Shown here piece after piece: positions 412 to 10,751 of a stretch of DNA of 64,000 nucleotides; the stretch's first letter is position 1; each line of letters begins with the position of its first letter. The stretch comes from a virus. Taxonomy: Duplodnaviria; Heunggongvirae; Uroviricota; Caudoviricetes. The notes beneath the pieces were generated by a model, which saw only the letters and a list, made by a program, of their open reading frames with translations, was not told the DNA's origin and did not search any database. The stretch is taken from the IMG/VR virus record IMGVR_UViG_3300021254_000022, positions 4,857-68,856 of that record. The stretch is one strand, 5' to 3'. A program made the position numbers and the translations under genes.

Positions 412-681
412 ATTGTGTTCTCCGTCTAGGATAGCTTCCTAGCGGCACCTAAGAGCACCCTCTTTACCGTTCTGGATGGATTACAGTAACGGGAGACCGA
501 AGTACAAGGTCTAGCTATGCACATGACGTCTTAGCATAGTGAAAATTGTCAGACGTGACTATGTAGCTAAACGCGATCCTCATGAGTTTTATGGACTTTA
601 TTCCCACCGAGAAGTGAAGGGAAAAAATTCTAGGCGCAGGGTGGCTAGTCTTTAGAGCGGGAGCTCAACCACCCCACATAT

Positions 682-765
682 GGGTCGTTATACCGTAAGT
701 AGTAGCGGGGCAGACTGTAAATCTGTTGTCCTTGGACTCGGGAGGTGCAACCCCTTCACGGCCCA
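682..765 (+). tRNA. tRNA-Tyr(GUA)-like, type II, with non-canonical T-loop TGCAACC and a D-loop lacking GG
   Basis: anticodon arm GCAGA-CUGUAAA-UCUGU as in bacterial tRNA-Tyr; 14-nt variable arm gtcc-tt-ggac; acceptor gggtcgt/acggccc. Confidence 0.4.
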
Positions 766-842
766 CTCAAGACACGTTCAGCAATTTTTACTGGCTCCAA
801 CTGTTTTTGCCAAAAACAAAAGTGTCTTTATTTGAAAATTTC

Positions 843-872
843 TAAAAAATATTATATAATATTTATAGAAAG
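843..872 (+). promoter_or_regulatory. conserved phage promoter (A-tract + TATAAT + atatagaaa)
   Basis: AAAAAATATTATATAATATTTATAGAAAG; this motif recurs about 20 times upstream of genes. Confidence 0.5.
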
Positions 873-890
873 TTAAAGAAAGGAAAAAAT

Positions 891-1088
891 ATGAAATACA
901 TCGTAAAACTCGATCAGAAAGATATTGCAGATATTATTTGTAAGCATTTCTGTTTAGCAGATCCTAAAGATGTTCATATCGAAGCTGGAACAACTACTGA
1001 AGGTTATGGAATGTCTGAACATCCAGTAGGATATGTGAAAGCAGAAGTTGAATTCGATAAAGATGTATGCGTTAAAGTTCCTTTTTGA
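891..1088 (+). CDS. hypothetical protein (65 aa)
   Basis: ORF with RBS aaaggaaaaaat upstream; TGA stop. Confidence 0.5.
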   Translation: MKYIVKLDQKDIADIICKHFCLADPKDVHIEAGTTTEGYGMSEHPVGYVKAEVEFDKDVCVKVPF

Positions 1089-1091
1089 TAT

Positions 1092-1165
1092 GCCCCTGTA
1101 GCCGAATTGGCATAGGCGTCTGACTTAGGATCAGAATTCTGGAGGTTCGAGTCCTCTCAGGGGTA
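1092..1165 (+). tRNA. type I tRNA with UAG anticodon (decodes CUA/CUG, Leu codons)
   Basis: acceptor gcccctg/caggggt (G1-U72 wobble); anticodon arm TCTGA-CTTAGGA-TCAGA; T-arm GGAGG-TTCGAGT-CCTCT. Confidence 0.5.
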
Positions 1166-1698
1166 CTAGTGGAGATCCGCCTCCACTTCGAGCAAGCGCG
1201 GCAGCCCTAAGAAAAACGTGATATGTCTCTGGTGGATACTTGGTGCGCAGCCATGAGAACGAAACTAAGCATATACGGGGTAAAAACCTCCTCCTTGCGA
1301 TCTGCAAATCGTTGAGAGCGAAGAAAGGGAAAGCAATAAGTTGCAGCAAATGTGCGCCCTGTGAGTAGTTTGAGGTTGATCTACTTTTTTTGAAATGGCT
1401 ACAGGATATGGGATCCTTCAAGAGGAAAACTTACGAGATTCGCGGTCTCTTGCATTGATGAAGTTGCCTTTTTAGTCAATGCCGCCATACTCGGCTAAAA
1501 GTAAGCCCCCAGCGTGAATTCTGGATATCGAGGTGCAAGACCTTGGTATGGCACTTATCCTAACGAAATGGAGGTATGGTCCATTGGGCTAATTTAAACC
1601 AATAAGCTAGGACGGTTTGGGAGTTCAGCCGAGGAAAACTCCATTAAAGCCTAAAAGAGTTTAGTGGTTCTCTTCAAAAACCACTTTCAATTAAATAT

Positions 1699-1773
1699 CG
1701 CGGGATGGTAGCAGTCTGGAAGCTCGTCTCCCTCATAAGGAGAAGGTCGTGGGTTCAAATCCCACTCCCGCAA
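1699..1773 (+). tRNA. initiator tRNA-fMet(CAU)
   Basis: C1·A72 mismatch; close sequence match to E. coli tRNA-fMet (CGCGGG...CTCATAA...GGTTCAAATCC...CCCGCAA). Confidence 0.7.
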
Positions 1774-1776
1774 CTT

Positions 1777-1851
1777 ACAGGCGTATACAGCAAGTATTTT
1801 TTTTGAACAATTTGAAGGTATGGAAAATCTGTTAAAAACGCCTGTTTTTTT
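1777..1851 (+). ncRNA. stem-closed ACAGCAAA element 1 (acaggcgt-ATACAGCAA-63 nt-acgcctgt-TTTTTTT)
   Basis: 8-bp closing stem 1777-1784/1838-1845; conserved ATACAGCAA directly 3' of the 5' arm; T-run after the 3' arm. Confidence 0.35.
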
Positions 1852-1926
1852 GGGTTGTGAGCTAGTACGGTTATTCAGCGCAGGACTGAAAATCCTGAGA
1901 ACCTGGTTCGACTCCAGGACAACCCA
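1852..1926 (+). tRNA. tRNA-Phe(GAA)
   Basis: acceptor gggttgt/acaaccc; anticodon arm CAGGA-CUGAAAA-UCCUG; T-arm CCTGG-TTCGACT-CCAGG; A73. Confidence 0.7.
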
Positions 1927-2183
1927 TTTATGAATATGATTAAGTTAAAGACCCAAAGAAGGAGATCCTGCTTATATATTGATTTTTTTCATTTTGTTTC
2001 CTTCCCTTTCATATGTATATATAAACCAAGGCAGGCTCTGGGTTGGTATCCTTTTCCTATATATCATATCCATAAATTAGAAATTATAAGAATATTACTA
2101 ACGTAGATTTCTTTGCCCTCTAAGCTTGAGCCATCATTTTCCTCGCAGCTGGATTTTTTATCTACGTTTTCTTTTTTATGTAT

Positions 2184-2273
2184 GGGGTGGTACCCAAGTA
2201 GGTGAAGGGGGCGGTTTGCTAAACCGCTAGGTCGGGTAAAACCGGCGCGAGAGTTCGAGCCTCTCCCACCCCG
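2184..2273 (+). tRNA. tRNA-Ser(GCU), type II
   Basis: acceptor ggggtgg/ccacccc; anticodon loop TTGCTAA; long variable arm; G73. Confidence 0.7.
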
Positions 2274-8971: not shown

Positions 8972-8985
8972 ACCGCAGTCTTTTT
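8964..8985 (+). terminator. rho-independent terminator
   Basis: GCGGT-taaa-ACCGC hairpin + TTTTT. Confidence 0.5.
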
Positions 8986-9068
8986 GGCGCAGATCCGGCT
9001 GGATGAGGAAGCAGTCTTGAAAACTGTCGGCCCTAGCGGGTTTGGGGGTTCGAGTCCCTCCTGCGTCG
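8986..9068 (+). tRNA. tRNA-Ser(UGA), type II
   Basis: acceptor ggcgcag/ctgcgtc; anticodon arm GCAGT-CTTGAAA-ACTGT; long variable arm; G73. Confidence 0.65.
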
Positions 9069-9098
9069 TTTAACTAAAATTGAATAGGAGGTAATCAT

Positions 9099-9476
9099 AT
9101 GCGTGGGATTGCATATAACCGTATTGTTTCCAAAAGGAAAGCAATCAGAAAGAAAAGACTCTCTGATTCGTGGGCAGGGGGTAAATGGCATCCGTGGTAT
9201 AATAACCTTCATCAATATAGTAAAAACAAAATTCATTGTTCTTGCGGCTTATGTTCTTGCAAGACAAATCAACACCATGAACATTCAAAAGGAGTTGGAA
9301 TGTTTTGTCTCTATCACTACACCGATGAAAACGGCGTTGAGCAAAAAAGATGGACAACCCATACGTGGGGTACTTCTCATTCAGGATACCGCAAAAACTG
9401 GAAACCTAGTGATCTGCGGAAGATTCAGCATATGGATGCCGAATTAAAGGAGTATTATGAGCAAAGCGTGGCATAA
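9099..9476 (+). CDS. hypothetical Cys/His-rich protein
   Basis: ORF. Confidence 0.4.
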   Translation: MRGIAYNRIVSKRKAIRKKRLSDSWAGGKWHPWYNNLHQYSKNKIHCSCGLCSCKTNQHHEHSKGVGMFCLYHYTDENGVEQKRWTTHTWGTSHSGYRKNWKPSDLRKIQHMDAELKEYYEQSVA

Positions 9477-9639
9477 ACCAACACCGGCTCCTCCAAATTG
9501 GTATTGGTTAGATAGTGATGGCTGTTGGTGGTGTAAATATTGGAAAAAAGGTTGCACTAGATGTAAAATTTTAAAAAGAATTGTTGCCGAGCAAAAAGAA
9601 CGGCAACGAAAAAAAGAAAAACATAAGTTTGATTTTTAA
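9457..9639 (+). CDS. hypothetical small Cys/Trp-rich protein
   Basis: ORF overlapping the upstream gene end. Confidence 0.3.
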   Translation: MSKAWHKPTPAPPNWYWLDSDGCWWCKYWKKGCTRCKILKRIVAEQKERQRKKEKHKFDF

Positions 9640-9675
9640 AAAAAAATATTATATAATATATACATAAGATAAATA

Positions 9676-9794
9676 AAGGGGCATACAGCAAAATCCACGT
9701 TGATCGTAGAAATCGCCGAATAGGTTCAGGCATAAAATTTAGGATTTTAAGTATATGGGTTCGAGTCCCATTTTCCACACCACAACAGCCCCTT
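9676..9794 (+). ncRNA. stem-closed ACAGCAAA element 3 (aaggggc-ATACAGCAA ... gcccctt) enclosing a complete tRNA
   Basis: 7-bp stem 9676-9682/9788-9794 flanks tRNA 9706-9782; motif at 9683-9691; conserved promoter motif upstream. Confidence 0.4.
9706..9782 (+). tRNA. type I tRNA with UAG anticodon and genomically encoded CCA
   Basis: acceptor gtagaaa/tttccac (one A·C); D-arm GCCG-AATAGGTTC-AGGC; anticodon arm TAAAA-TTTAGGA-TTTTA; T-arm ATGGG-TTCGAGT-CCCAT; ...A-CCA. Confidence 0.5.
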
Positions 9795-9801
9795 GTATTA
9801 T

Positions 9802-9875
9802 TCGGGCGTGGCTCAGTTTGGTAGAGCGCTTGATTTGGGATCAAGAGGTCGTCGGTTCGAATCCGGTCGCCCGAA
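9802..9875 (+). tRNA. tRNA-Pro(UGG)
   Basis: acceptor tcgggcg/cgcccga; anticodon loop TTTGGGA; D-arm GCTC-AGTTTGGTA-GAGC. Confidence 0.7.
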
Positions 9876-9970
9876 TTATAATCTTGAATTAAATTTACTC
9901 AAAAACAAATAAGGTTTCAAGTGCAATGACGTCAGCGGTAGAGCCTTATAAAGAGAGACACTTTCAGCAA

Positions 9971-10053
9971 ATTCATACTTTAAGTATGTGCCGTGGGTTC
10001 GAATCCCATCATCCGCGCCAAAAATTGCGAATGTAGATCAGTTGGTAGATCAA
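9971..10053 (+). ncRNA. split or permuted tRNA-like halves: 3' half (anticodon arm with UUA, T-arm, acceptor 3' strand, G73, encoded CCA; 9971-10020) followed after 6 nt by a 5' half (acceptor 5' strand + U8A9 + canonical D-arm; 10027-10052)
   Basis: 3' strand catccgc pairs 6/7 with downstream gcgaatg; no matching 5' strand found upstream; 7-nt anticodon-loop reading CTTTAAG gives anticodon UUA. Confidence 0.3.
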
Positions 10054-10075
10054 TACAAAAAGGTGTCTAGTACGT

Positions 10076-10146
10076 AGGGGTATAGCCTAGTGGTAGGGCA
10101 CAGGACTTTGACTCCTGCTGGGGTGGTTCGATCCCACCTACCCCTG
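10076..10146 (+). tRNA. tRNA-Gln(UUG)
   Basis: acceptor aggggta/tacccct, G73; anticodon arm CAGGA-CTTTGAC-TCCTG; T-arm GGTGG-TTCGATC-CCACC. Confidence 0.7.
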
Positions 10147-10751
10147 CTCCCATTATGGTTGGAAACCATGATGGTTTTGTATTCTGTAGGATGTCGCTTG
10201 GATAAAGCTAGCATATGCGACCATTTAAAGAGTGTTCCTGGAACTTTGAGAATATGTCTACACTACAGCGGATGGGCAGACCGTTATCCTCCCATTCTTA
10301 TTTAAAATAGCGCGTTGAAGGCGAAAGCAAGTGCCACAGGCTAGAGCAATCCGAGTATTGAATAGTTTATTGACCGCGCTGGTACTCACTGGATCACGCC
10401 AGTATAATATTATTATTTAATTATTACATTTTGCTGACCAAGCAGCTAATTAACGAGATCGGTGAATCGGTTTCTATATGCTAACGTGATTTAGATGGTC
10501 TTGGATAAGGAAACTAATTCATTCGAGAAAATATCACATTCAGTAATTTATGATTGACCGACCTTGGTAGGAGGTTGTACTGGGGCAATACATGTCACCG
10601 CCAGTAGGGAGGAAAAGTGGTCACATAAATGAACGATGTGATATTTTTTTATATGTAATTTTTTTAAATAAATCTAGTAGGCAAAGAGAGATAATATAAT
10701 TTATTATCCCTCTTATTTTTTTTTATCTAGAAAATAAAAGGAGCATAAACT

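Follow-up and report, generated by a model that had tools for sequence, protein, structure and literature searches.

We analysed a 64,000-nucleotide (nt) stretch of a Caudoviricetes virus genome (IMG/VR record IMGVR_UViG_3300021254_000022, positions 4,857 to 68,856; hereafter the window, W), whose first part carries an island of transfer RNA (tRNA) genes with several intervening blocks rich in guanine and cytosine (GC), here called B0 to B5 (Table 1). The blocks are probably a set of at least five unrelated, conserved and structured non-coding RNAs (ncRNAs), which share the coding strand with the tRNAs in the operons of an uncultivated, TAG-recoded phage, are punctuated by tRNAs, and act in trans. 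Confidence that the individual blocks are functional structured RNAs is high for B0, B4 and B5 and good for B2 and B3; B1 is conserved and, as far as its sequence indicates, may also be such an RNA, for which our confidence is low. The window is phage-like, encoding topoisomerase II, DNA ligase, DnaB and tail-like proteins, and every recognisable gene in its first 20 kb lies on the + strand. ARAGORN called 18 tRNAs, and Rfam at gathering thresholds returned the same 18 and nothing more. TAG is read as sense. Several open reading frames (ORFs) carry it in frame, at 2493 (ORF 2409-2996), 11740 and 11780, and positions 15314-15403 encode a suppressor tRNA(cta) of 90 nt whose variable arm is long (ARAGORN label 'Pyl').

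An earlier, sequence-only reading of this DNA had located the blocks to within a few bases. It put their GC content at 45-52% against about 30% nearby; the enrichment was confirmed, but the measured range is 39-49%, against 26% in other spacers. Specifically, GC content was 47% in B0 (1-175), 48% in B1 (414-683), 47% and 39% in the 5' and 3' modules of B2 (B2a and B2b), 43% in B3, 49% in B4 (6771-6979) and 40% in B5, compared with a window mean of 34.1%, 36% in coding sequence and 56% in tRNAs, and only 7.9% of 200-nt windows reached 45% or more. The high density of stop codons described before was also found, since + strand frames stay open for at most 78 codons under the standard, TAG-recoded and TGA-recoded codes; this maximum is a stop-free run in B2 under TAG recoding and not an ATG-initiated ORF. 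The blocks share no sequence similarity with one another, and paralogy was thereby ruled out.

The placement of the blocks is strict. Every block begins 0-1 nt past a tRNA, four stop exactly at the next tRNA or tRNA-like cloverleaf, and B1, B2 and B4 occupy the entire gap up to the following tRNA; the same tRNA-flush placement was seen in orthologous contigs. The downstream neighbours are tRNAs after B1, B2 and B4, a U-run after B5, and members of a family of stem+ACAGCAAA elements (described below) after B0 and B3, and none of the blocks lies directly upstream of a regulated ORF as a riboswitch or 5' leader does. Direct reading of the flanking tRNAs Met (338), Leu (1092), His, Arg-tct and Gln showed that none of them encodes CCA. 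Note that a further non-coding segment of 134 nt (38% GC), absent from the sequence-only reading, lies at 2275-2408, directly 3' of tRNA-Ser (2184-2274).

The evidence for structure is comparative. Folds were predicted by RNAalifold, and double changes were counted per base pair and compared with shuffled alignments and with slid-partner controls. The related uncultivated phage contigs, designated by L-numbers, were collected in several ways. With the AAA ATPase encoded nearby (7437-8570), a contig of IMG/VR, L001 (70% amino-acid identity), and a more distant clade, L002-L005, were found, and close protein homologs of the same ATPase led to ENA/JGI contigs L007-L013. A 17-base pattern from the B4 core hit 54 loci in metagenome contigs, of which only about 10 were true homologs by BLAST or covariance model; the BLAST-confirmed loci were nine further homologs and a second hit to the L001 contig (L050). 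Across the blocks, one of these nine (L067) has 88-99.6% identity to the window. Contigs L076-L078 were found with a 65-amino-acid (aa) ORF (891-1088). Several of the relatives' records are probably from the rumen, judging by their dataset names (STEW19, GLEN20) alone. Block positions are syntenic across phages whose ATPases are only 70% identical. In addition, the region of L067 that lies upstream of the window start (9433-13263) has 10 more tRNAs and a transfer-messenger RNA (tmRNA, tag ANYEYRMAA), and its seven inter-tRNA gaps of 284-536 nt may contain further blocks of this kind.

Searches outside these relatives were negative. Pattern scans of IMG/VR for B4, B5 and B2 gave L001 as the sole related contig, other matches being due to chance. 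By megablast, the first 11 kb (B0-B5) matched deposited phage genomes only in the tRNAs. B2, B4 and B5 had no distant blastn match in 50,697 deposited phage genomes, among which T4-like phages should be represented. Pattern scans of 185,579 GTDB species genomes did not find the cores of B4 and B5, and nothing therefore points to an origin in a host or prophage.

The structure of B4 was derived from 12 full-length sequences (alignment A3), which contain an invariant core, GGUACACGUGUGCGGGUUUUGG, at 6852-6873. Compensatory double changes were found in 24 of the 50 pairs predicted by RNAalifold, whereas shuffled alignments gave 12.7±1.9 such pairs and none of 500 shuffles reached 24; 97.1% of cells were paired, compared with 87.5% in the shuffles. 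When the 3' partners were slid by 1-3 columns, only 1-7 double-change pairs remained. Invariant G-U pairs in A3 (e.g., columns 86/95 and 165/170) would read C-A on the opposite strand, indicating that the + strand is the RNA strand. A covariance model built from A3 found 14 members, exactly one per contig, and none in L002-L005. In ten contigs (the window and nine others), B4 lies 0-2 nt past a tRNA and 0 nt before tRNA-Arg(acg); nine of the ten have Arg-tct as the upstream tRNA, and L058 has Trp. The complementarity of tgtgcgc and gcgcaca noted in the sequence-only reading lies outside the covariation-supported fold, in which each segment belongs to its own local hairpin. In L002-L005, the slot between tRNA-Arg(tct) and tRNA-Arg(acg) holds a different conserved block of about 530-545 nt (e.g., L002 8904-9447), which starts with a stem and ACAGCAA and contains a lone T-arm and more tRNA-like pieces.

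The 3' third of B4 consists of two hairpins (A and B) with stems of 9-10 base pairs (bp) and a 3-nt linker. Their loops, UUGGCG and CGCCAA, are perfectly complementary (computed duplex energy, -7.6 kcal/mol) and are invariant in 14 of 14 members, while both stems vary freely. Even in L001 and L020, where the order of the hairpins is swapped, both loops are kept. The hairpins, constant in length, would present the loops for self-association or for pairing with CGCCA-type 3' ends of tRNAs. Helix geometry makes a 6-bp loop-loop helix within one B4 molecule look sterically unlikely, given the 3-nt linker and the 9-bp stems, and pairing between molecules seems more plausible. CGCCAA occurs only six times in the 64 kb, and two occurrences outside B4 come directly after the T-arms of tRNA-like elements (10016 and 15289), so that, alternatively, this loop can be read as resembling the N-CCA end of a tRNA. 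In T-box RNAs and RNase P RNA, CCA ends are bound by loops with UGG. Furthermore, an otherwise invariant B4 hairpin, GUAC-ACGU-GUGC, is changed to GUAC-GCGC-GUGC in L001 with its 6-nt palindrome kept (CACGUG to CGCGCG); from this single observation, the palindrome could be a second self-pairing site.

Similar evidence was obtained for B5 and B0. For B5, seven sequences (alignment A4) gave 82 predicted pairs with 96.1% of cells paired, and 30 of the pairs were compensatory, compared with 8.9±2.1 in shuffles and 1-5 after sliding. The block had been placed at 10150-10620; its location held, but its 3' end was moved to about 10650, at a long-range helix with a U-run behind it. This 15-bp helix (10527-10540/10636-10649) closes the 3' domain, and its sequence differs in L001 with complementarity kept. 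B0 lacks about 34 nt in the window, and in L067 and L007 it begins directly after tRNA-Glu(ttc), just upstream. Its core (5-168) is a closed multi-helix junction with an AUGUCGG/CCGACAU stem, and a second hairpin lies at about 201-230. Alignment A8 (four sequences from three lineages) gave 41 pairs with 93.9% of cells paired; 16 of them were compensatory, against 8.1±1.8 in shuffles and 0-4 after sliding. The covariation analysis that the sequence-only reading had suggested as a check thus showed, for B4, B5 and B0, that helices are kept by compensatory changes well above the shuffled and slid controls, the latter dropping to 0-7 pairs.

Promoter-like and terminator-like sequences were found around B5. 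The U-run after the closing helix of B5 is likely the end of a transcription unit that begins at the promoter-like site 9629-9657 and comprises tRNA-Leu, tRNA-Pro, a YrlA-like element (see below), tRNA-Gln and B5. Sister sites of the TTGA-N17-TATAAT form are located at 832-860, 5301-5329 and 8572-8600; such sites precede the blocks on the same strand, which favours their being RNAs. A further call, at 290-317 within a stem+ACAGCAAA element, may be a chance match. The first hairpin of B5 was considered as a terminator because of its terminator-like score in the window, but was rejected because its U-tract is not conserved in L007 and L038. Downstream of B5, a conserved GC-rich element at 10748-10812, GAGCCGGCCGCGC ... 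GCCGCUCG followed by a U-run, is kept in L067, L007 and L038 with a diverged copy in L001, and could be a small RNA or a large-loop terminator.

B2 turned out to be composite. The sequence-only reading had treated 1166-1698 as a single tRNA-free unit; it is non-coding and GC-rich as described, but a cryptic tRNA-like cloverleaf lies inside it at 1484-1553. In an alignment of the whole block with L067, L076 and L011, 21 of 134 pairs were compensatory; B2b is highly conserved, and consequently only 5 of its 38 pairs were. All four arms of the cloverleaf were predicted, with compensatory changes in the acceptor, anticodon and T arms, and the cloverleaf is also the minimum-energy fold of this segment (z -3.56; 0 of 200 shuffles). 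It departs from a canonical tRNA in its 8-nt anticodon loop and 5-nt T-loop, and neither Rfam nor ARAGORN called it in the window; ARAGORN labels its L076 ortholog 'tRNA-???'. In L007, a genuine tRNA-Val is found at the cloverleaf point, with a different GC-rich block after tRNA-Leu. B2 can therefore be described as B2a, a tRNA-like punctuation mark and B2b, and the cloverleaf is likely a processing signal and not a decoding tRNA. Two long-range pairings between B2a and B2b given by RNAalifold, CCUCC/GGAGG and CGGCAGCCCUAA/UUUGGGAG..GCCG, were distrusted, being invariant; in L007 the 3' partner of the second one forms a local, covarying hairpin. Note that AACCUCCUCCUU, at 1287-1297 in the invariant B2a core, resembles the anti-Shine-Dalgarno region at the 3' end of 16S ribosomal RNA (rRNA).

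For B3, an ortholog was found in L067 only. The two sequences differ by nine substitutions, seven of which fall in predicted pairs and all preserve pairing, including three double compensations and one change from G-U to G-C. The slot after tRNA-His holds B3 in the window and L067, an unrelated segment of about 58 nt in L007 and L011, and a 27-nt hairpin in L038. Separately, UUUCACCUCUUUCUUUUGAUGAU at 3794-3816, past the tRNA-His slot, resembles the 3' end of 16S rRNA (anti-Shine-Dalgarno region) and is conserved in the window, L067 and L011; L007 and L038 keep its core, UUCACCUCUUUCU. In the window, L007 and L001, B1 has tRNA-Met on one side and tRNA-Tyr on the other, and its cross-lineage conservation is limited to the 3' domain (about 544-683). 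The tRNA-Tyr-like sequence that follows it matches phage tRNA regions by megablast, and the L001 ortholog of this tRNA is split by an ORF.

No block matched a known RNA family. The Rfam scan that had been proposed as a check was run with Rfam 15 at E≤10 over positions 1-20000, and B0-B2, B4 and B5 were also scanned alone with permissive filters; no match was found within the blocks, including to RNase P RNA, 6S RNA, signal recognition particle RNA, riboswitches or ribozymes. This agrees with the sequence-only reading, in which the blocks could not be matched by eye to RNase P RNA, tmRNA or group I/II intron cores. Matches to the tmRNA model were found only outside the blocks, at 9910-10010 (11.8 bits) and 9992-10009 (7.6 bits). 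The absence of an Rfam family, the conserved positions and the compensatory changes together support the earlier suggestion of novel structured RNAs, with weak covariation in the case of B1.

How the blocks would be released can be considered from their boundaries. In bacterial tRNA maturation, RNase Z cleaves precursors that lack CCA just behind the discriminator, and the cut at +1 of the next tRNA is made by RNase P. Host tRNA-processing enzymes would cut the blocks from a polycistronic transcript in the same way, RNase Z making the 5' end of a module after the discriminator of the upstream tRNA and RNase P making its 3' end at +1 of the downstream tRNA. Processing of the tRNAs would thereby set both ends of B1, B2a, B2b and B4, and B5 would end at its helix and U-run; the products would be discrete, stable RNAs in amounts matching those of the phage tRNAs. 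Excision by these enzymes is likely because the modules are flush with tRNAs or the cloverleaf and the flanking tRNAs checked do not encode CCA, and the retention of a non-decoding cloverleaf in B2 fits selection for a processing signal. From the gene context, the blocks would most likely have a role in a phage programme of tRNA supply and RNA repair.

Several points weigh against interpreting the blocks as trans-acting structured RNAs. Single-sequence folding energies are ordinary (z -0.01 to -1.0), and for this reason structure was assessed comparatively and thermodynamic evidence was dropped. Pairs were counted on the same alignments that were used for structure prediction, the aligned sequences are kin, and shuffle counts are not probabilities. 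The support for B0, B2 and B3 is drawn from 2-4 lineages only, and the covariation of B1 is weak (4 of 23 pairs compensatory). B4 is missing in a close relative, L012 (ATPase 92% identical), in which the tRNA-Arg pair is separated by TTTT only; this clean absence marks B4 as a discrete, dispensable cassette. Likewise, the slot after tRNA-His is empty in L012, L076 and L013, indicating that B3 is dispensable. The B4 loops never vary, so that covariation lends no support to the loop pairing, and no Ro60-binding or YrlA feature was recognisable in any block in the Rfam scans, which leaves gene context as the sole link between the blocks and the Ro60-like protein described below.

The blocks might alternatively be cis-acting parts of tRNA precursors, i.e., spacers that tune processing order, stability or read-through and are degraded after cleavage. 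In favour of this, all of them run co-linear with tRNAs and abut them, adjacent tRNAs stay undisturbed where B3 and B4 are lost, and the first hairpin of B5 is terminator-like in the window. However, a spacer would not need to reach about 500 nt or to contain multi-helix junctions and long invariant stretches without pairing, the U-tract of that hairpin is not kept in L007 and L038, and the 4-nt tRNA spacer of B4-less relatives shows that a long spacer is unnecessary for processing. We thus consider a purely cis-acting role rather unlikely.

Another explanation arises from the gene content of the island. The ORF at 19036-20562 encodes a 508-aa protein that matches the PHROG family 'RNA-binding protein' (E 2e-122) and Pfam DUF2828 and DUF7788. 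In its AlphaFold2 model (pLDDT 66.6), a helical N-terminal part precedes a C-terminal domain of alpha/beta type, and the top seven PDB matches by Foldseek were all Ro60/Rsr over the full length (E 7e-6 to 3e-4; TM score 0.34-0.50), followed by vWA domains only. Sequence searches of this protein against PDB, NCBIfam and Pfam TROVE found nothing. We call the product Ro60-like and not Ro60. Homologs of the protein are very common, numbering at least 8000 at E≤1e-10. In addition, ORF 5363-5704 has a cREC domain (E 5e-20), which has been proposed to process 2',3'-cyclic phosphate RNA ends (PMC7824862), and a Thg1-like tRNA 5'-end repair enzyme, two metallophosphoesterases, an RNase T-like exonuclease and a PIN-PhoH protein are encoded downstream.

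The island also contains candidates for Y-RNA-like molecules other than the blocks. The Rfam YrlA model gave a full-length match at 9964-10084 with 29.1 bits, where the gathering score is 69. This YrlA-like element (9953-10068; fold z -2.41) consists of a T-arm, an acceptor-like hairpin (CAUCCGC/GCGAAUG) and a D-arm in the permuted tRNA-like order typical of YrlA; it is enclosed by a 6-bp stem followed by UUUCAGCAAA and belongs to the multi-copy stem+ACAGCAAA family. The layout of the family is a 7-bp stem, (A/U)NACAGCAAA, a variable insert and the complementary stem, and the first 19 kb contain eight copies with perfect stems and two with 6-bp stems. Such elements were also found in L001, L002, L003, L007, L011-L013, L038, L044, L047, L069 and L076. 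The stem sequences vary among copies yet always pair, and orthologous copies covary in the outer stem and in an inner hairpin. The inserts are a true tRNA (tRNA-Leu 9706-9782 in the window; tRNA-Phe in L002 and L003), the permuted tRNA-like domain or lone T-arms, and the insert of 3824-3897 is a single anticodon-arm-like hairpin with a CUUUUAA loop. In a crude control, 13.8% of random positions found a 7-bp partner within 145 nt, compared with 9 of 20 motif hits; given this background the count is modest evidence, and covariation among orthologous copies is the stronger argument.

On this basis, the blocks could be partners, regulators or decoys of the Ro60-like protein, as Y RNA analogues, which would sharpen and not exclude the interpretation as trans-acting RNAs. 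The gene for the Ro60-like protein lies where the island that holds the blocks ends, the YrlA-like permuted tRNA-like RNA lies immediately upstream of B5, cREC and the Thg1-like enzyme are present, and TROVE proteins with a tRNA-like partner have been noted in jumbo phages (PMC7824862). On the other hand, the blocks have neither a YrlA model match nor a conserved YrlA motif, the Ro60-like gene is 8-19 kb away from them, and the assignment of the protein comes from a model of moderate quality with the scores given above. The multi-copy stem+ACAGCAAA elements are better Y-RNA candidates. We therefore hold a partnership of the blocks with this protein to be improbable, and propose, as a hypothesis, that the stem+ACAGCAAA elements, rather than the GC-rich blocks, are Y-RNA-like ligands of the Ro60-like protein, or else processing stems. 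Speculatively, and with a low probability in our view, the whole island could be an RNA-based counter-defence and repair module made up of the punctuated RNAs, the divergent Ro60-like protein and the Y-RNA-like stem+ACAGCAAA family, in which B4 self-assembles or acts as a sensor or decoy of tRNA 3' ends; its CGCCAA loop would mimic an N-CCA end and its UUGGCG loop would be able to bind such ends.

The sequence-only reading had also named degraded introns as candidates. Remnants of mobile elements, whether degraded group I/II introns or selfish insertions at tRNA gene boundaries, would account for the clean presence or absence of B3 and B4, for the tRNA-Trp that replaces tRNA-Arg(tct) before B4 in L058, and for the PD-(D/E)XK-type ORF in or next to a neighbouring tRNA in L013 (Pfam PDDEXK_5), with ORFs of unassigned family inserted likewise in L001. 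However, the flanking tRNAs are complete, leaving nothing to splice, and the tRNA-Arg pair of L012 is intact without B4. No group I/II or other intron family matched at E≤10, each genome has one B4 copy, no terminal inverted repeats or target duplications were seen by eye (no repeat search was run on the B4 ends), and the positions are syntenic as described above. Compensatory change maintains the structure under purifying selection, which is the opposite of decay, and a mobile origin of this kind is thus very unlikely. That the blocks encode small proteins under an unusual genetic code can practically be dismissed, because, although the phage recodes TAG (in-frame TAG at 2493; suppressor tRNA), + strand frames are broken under all three codes and substitutions track base pairs and not codons.

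Some further features of the island and of its relatives were recorded. In the relatives, ORFs of about 110-143 aa are located in the anticodon loops of tRNA-Tyr and tRNA-Arg(acg) or within the tRNA before B4, and they leave too little space for a group I ribozyme core. Besides the tRNA-Tyr-like sequence at 684-766, two more tRNA-like sequences were not called by ARAGORN: one at 8985-9068, tRNA-Ser(uga)-like, scores as tRNA-Sec with 34.9 bits, and one at about 18221-18346 resembles tRNA-Phe(gaa) but has some 45 nt inserted between its D arm and its anticodon arm. Positions 11722-13473 (47-53% GC; GC skew +0.4) encode a 583-aa protein composed almost wholly of Cys/Gly-rich CXXX-type repeats, followed by a small ORF (13502-13801) and a radical SAM 'CXXX-repeat target family' peptide maturase (13798-15150; TIGR04115, E 7e-75). 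The repeat protein is unusually large for a substrate of such a maturase, and it is phage-encoded.

Table 1. Features of the tRNA island and its surroundings. Positions are those of the window unless a contig is named.
Feature	Position	Strand	Remarks
B0, cut at window start	1..230	+	alignment A8 with L067, L007, L001
tRNA-Met(cat)	338..413	+	B1 5' boundary, no CCA encoded; ARAGORN, Rfam 32.9 bits
B1	414..683	+	fills gap from tRNA-Met to tRNA-Tyr-like
tRNA-Tyr(gta)-like, long variable arm, odd T-loop	684..766	+	Rfam tRNA 25.2 bits, sub-threshold; not called by ARAGORN
tRNA-Leu(tag)	1092..1166	+	B2 5' boundary; ARAGORN
B2a, 5' module, invariant core ACGGGGUAAAAACCUCCUCCUUGCGAUCUGCAAAUCGUUGAGAGCGAA	1167..1483	+	alignments A5, A6
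Cryptic tRNA-like cloverleaf	1484..1553	+	7-bp acceptor stem; D, anticodon and T arms
B2b, 3' module	1554..1698	+	alone between tRNA-Val and tRNA-Met in L007
tRNA-Met(cat)	1699..1774	+	B2 3' boundary; ARAGORN
tRNA-His(gtg)	3599..3673	+	B3 5' boundary; ARAGORN
B3, four-way junction (closing stem and three hairpins, about 3688-3782)	3674..3785	+	W vs L067
tRNA-Arg(tct)	6698..6770	+	B4 5' boundary, no CCA encoded; ARAGORN
B4, 209-nt RNA, 9 helices	6771..6979	+	12-sequence alignment A3
B4 hairpin A	6924-6947	+	loop UUGGCG 6933-6938
B4 hairpin B	6951-6974	+	loop CGCCAA 6960-6965
tRNA-Arg(acg)	6980..7052	+	B4 3' boundary, 0-nt spacer; ARAGORN
Promoter-like TTGATT-17-TATAAT	9629..9657	+	repeat family D4/D12 and consensus scan; consensus match only
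tRNA-Gln(ttg)	10076..10147	+	B5 5' boundary; ARAGORN
B5, about 500 nt, 13 predicted helices	10148..10650	+	7-sequence alignment A4
Stem+ACAGCAAA copies	262-323, 768-828, 1778-1844, 3824-3897, 9676-9794	+	
Stem+ACAGCAAA copies	9953-10068, 15209-15306, 16076-16190, 17841-17968, 18053-18185	+	
RNA-repair/tRNA-maintenance set including cREC	5363-5704, 25003-25797, 26369-27175, 27762-28574, 32938-33708, 36016-37044		
tRNA-inserted ORFs	L001 4575-5015, 9186-9640; L013 3551-3979		only the L013 ORF has a family, Pfam PDDEXK_5

Several known systems offer a comparison with the blocks. The Rfam families ROOL and GOLLD comprise large structured ncRNAs from phages and prophages, located 'often near tRNA islands'. 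Their assemblies, studied by cryo-EM, are held together by conserved kissing-loop contacts, and the GOLLD linker sometimes contains tRNAs (PMC12286853). The blocks resemble them in being phage ncRNAs that adjoin tRNA genes, all of them abutting tRNAs; the cloverleaf inside B2 recalls the tRNAs in the GOLLD linker, and the complementary 6-nt loops of B4 recall the kissing-loop assemblies, although multimerisation of B4 is only predicted. In contrast to ROOL and GOLLD, the blocks are smaller (112-500 nt), number at least five distinct RNAs per island and are strictly tRNA-flush. Neither the ROOL model nor the GOLLD model, including its conserved 3' domain, matched at E≤10 in 1-20000 or in the focused scans of B0-B2, B4 and B5. 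RNAs C and D (species 1 and 2) of phage T4 are two stable RNAs of about 120-140 nt that lie in the tRNA cluster and are matured from tRNA precursors. Compared by description only, they are like the blocks in being small RNAs encoded within a phage tRNA cluster, whereas the blocks exceed them in number and mostly in size.

Bacterial Y RNAs (YrlA) have tRNA-like modules and occur near a Ro60 ortholog and in RNA-repair contexts, and at least one is cleaved by RNase P (PMC4201824). The candidate counterparts in the window are a gene whose product is Ro60-like in its predicted fold and the sub-threshold YrlA-like element; the blocks differ from YrlA in having neither a model match nor the stem-plus-tRNA-like layout and in being 1.5-5 times longer. 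Punctuation of transcripts by tRNAs is known from mitochondrial genomes and MALAT1-mascRNA, and spacer-derived small RNAs such as 3'ETS-leuZ are comparable: functional RNAs are bounded on both sides by cuts of RNase P and RNase Z at neighbouring tRNAs or tRNA-like structures. In these cases messenger RNAs, rRNAs and short sponge RNAs are released, while a set of complex structured viral ncRNAs is proposed here. On the best reading, the blocks belong, broadly, with ROOL, GOLLD and the T4 RNAs C and D, yet represent new families. They differ from those cases in the presence of at least five unrelated families in one island, the strict tRNA punctuation, the embedded non-decoding cloverleaf, the presence, absence or replacement of modules at fixed slots and the complementary loop pair of B4.

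ROOL and GOLLD have made clear that RNAs beside tRNA islands can be abundant and can form protein-free nanocages, and the window adds at least five uncatalogued RNA families of a similar kind in a single island. The system is tractable, because the ends of the RNAs would be precisely set by tRNA boundaries, the loop pair of the compact 209-nt B4 can be mutated and restored, and natural relatives with and without a module are available. Furthermore, the Ro60-like, cREC and Thg1-like genes together with the Y-RNA-like elements suggest a setting for these RNAs, namely tRNA damage and repair during infection, and such a setting would allow testing of what tRNA-island RNAs do, which is a long-standing question.

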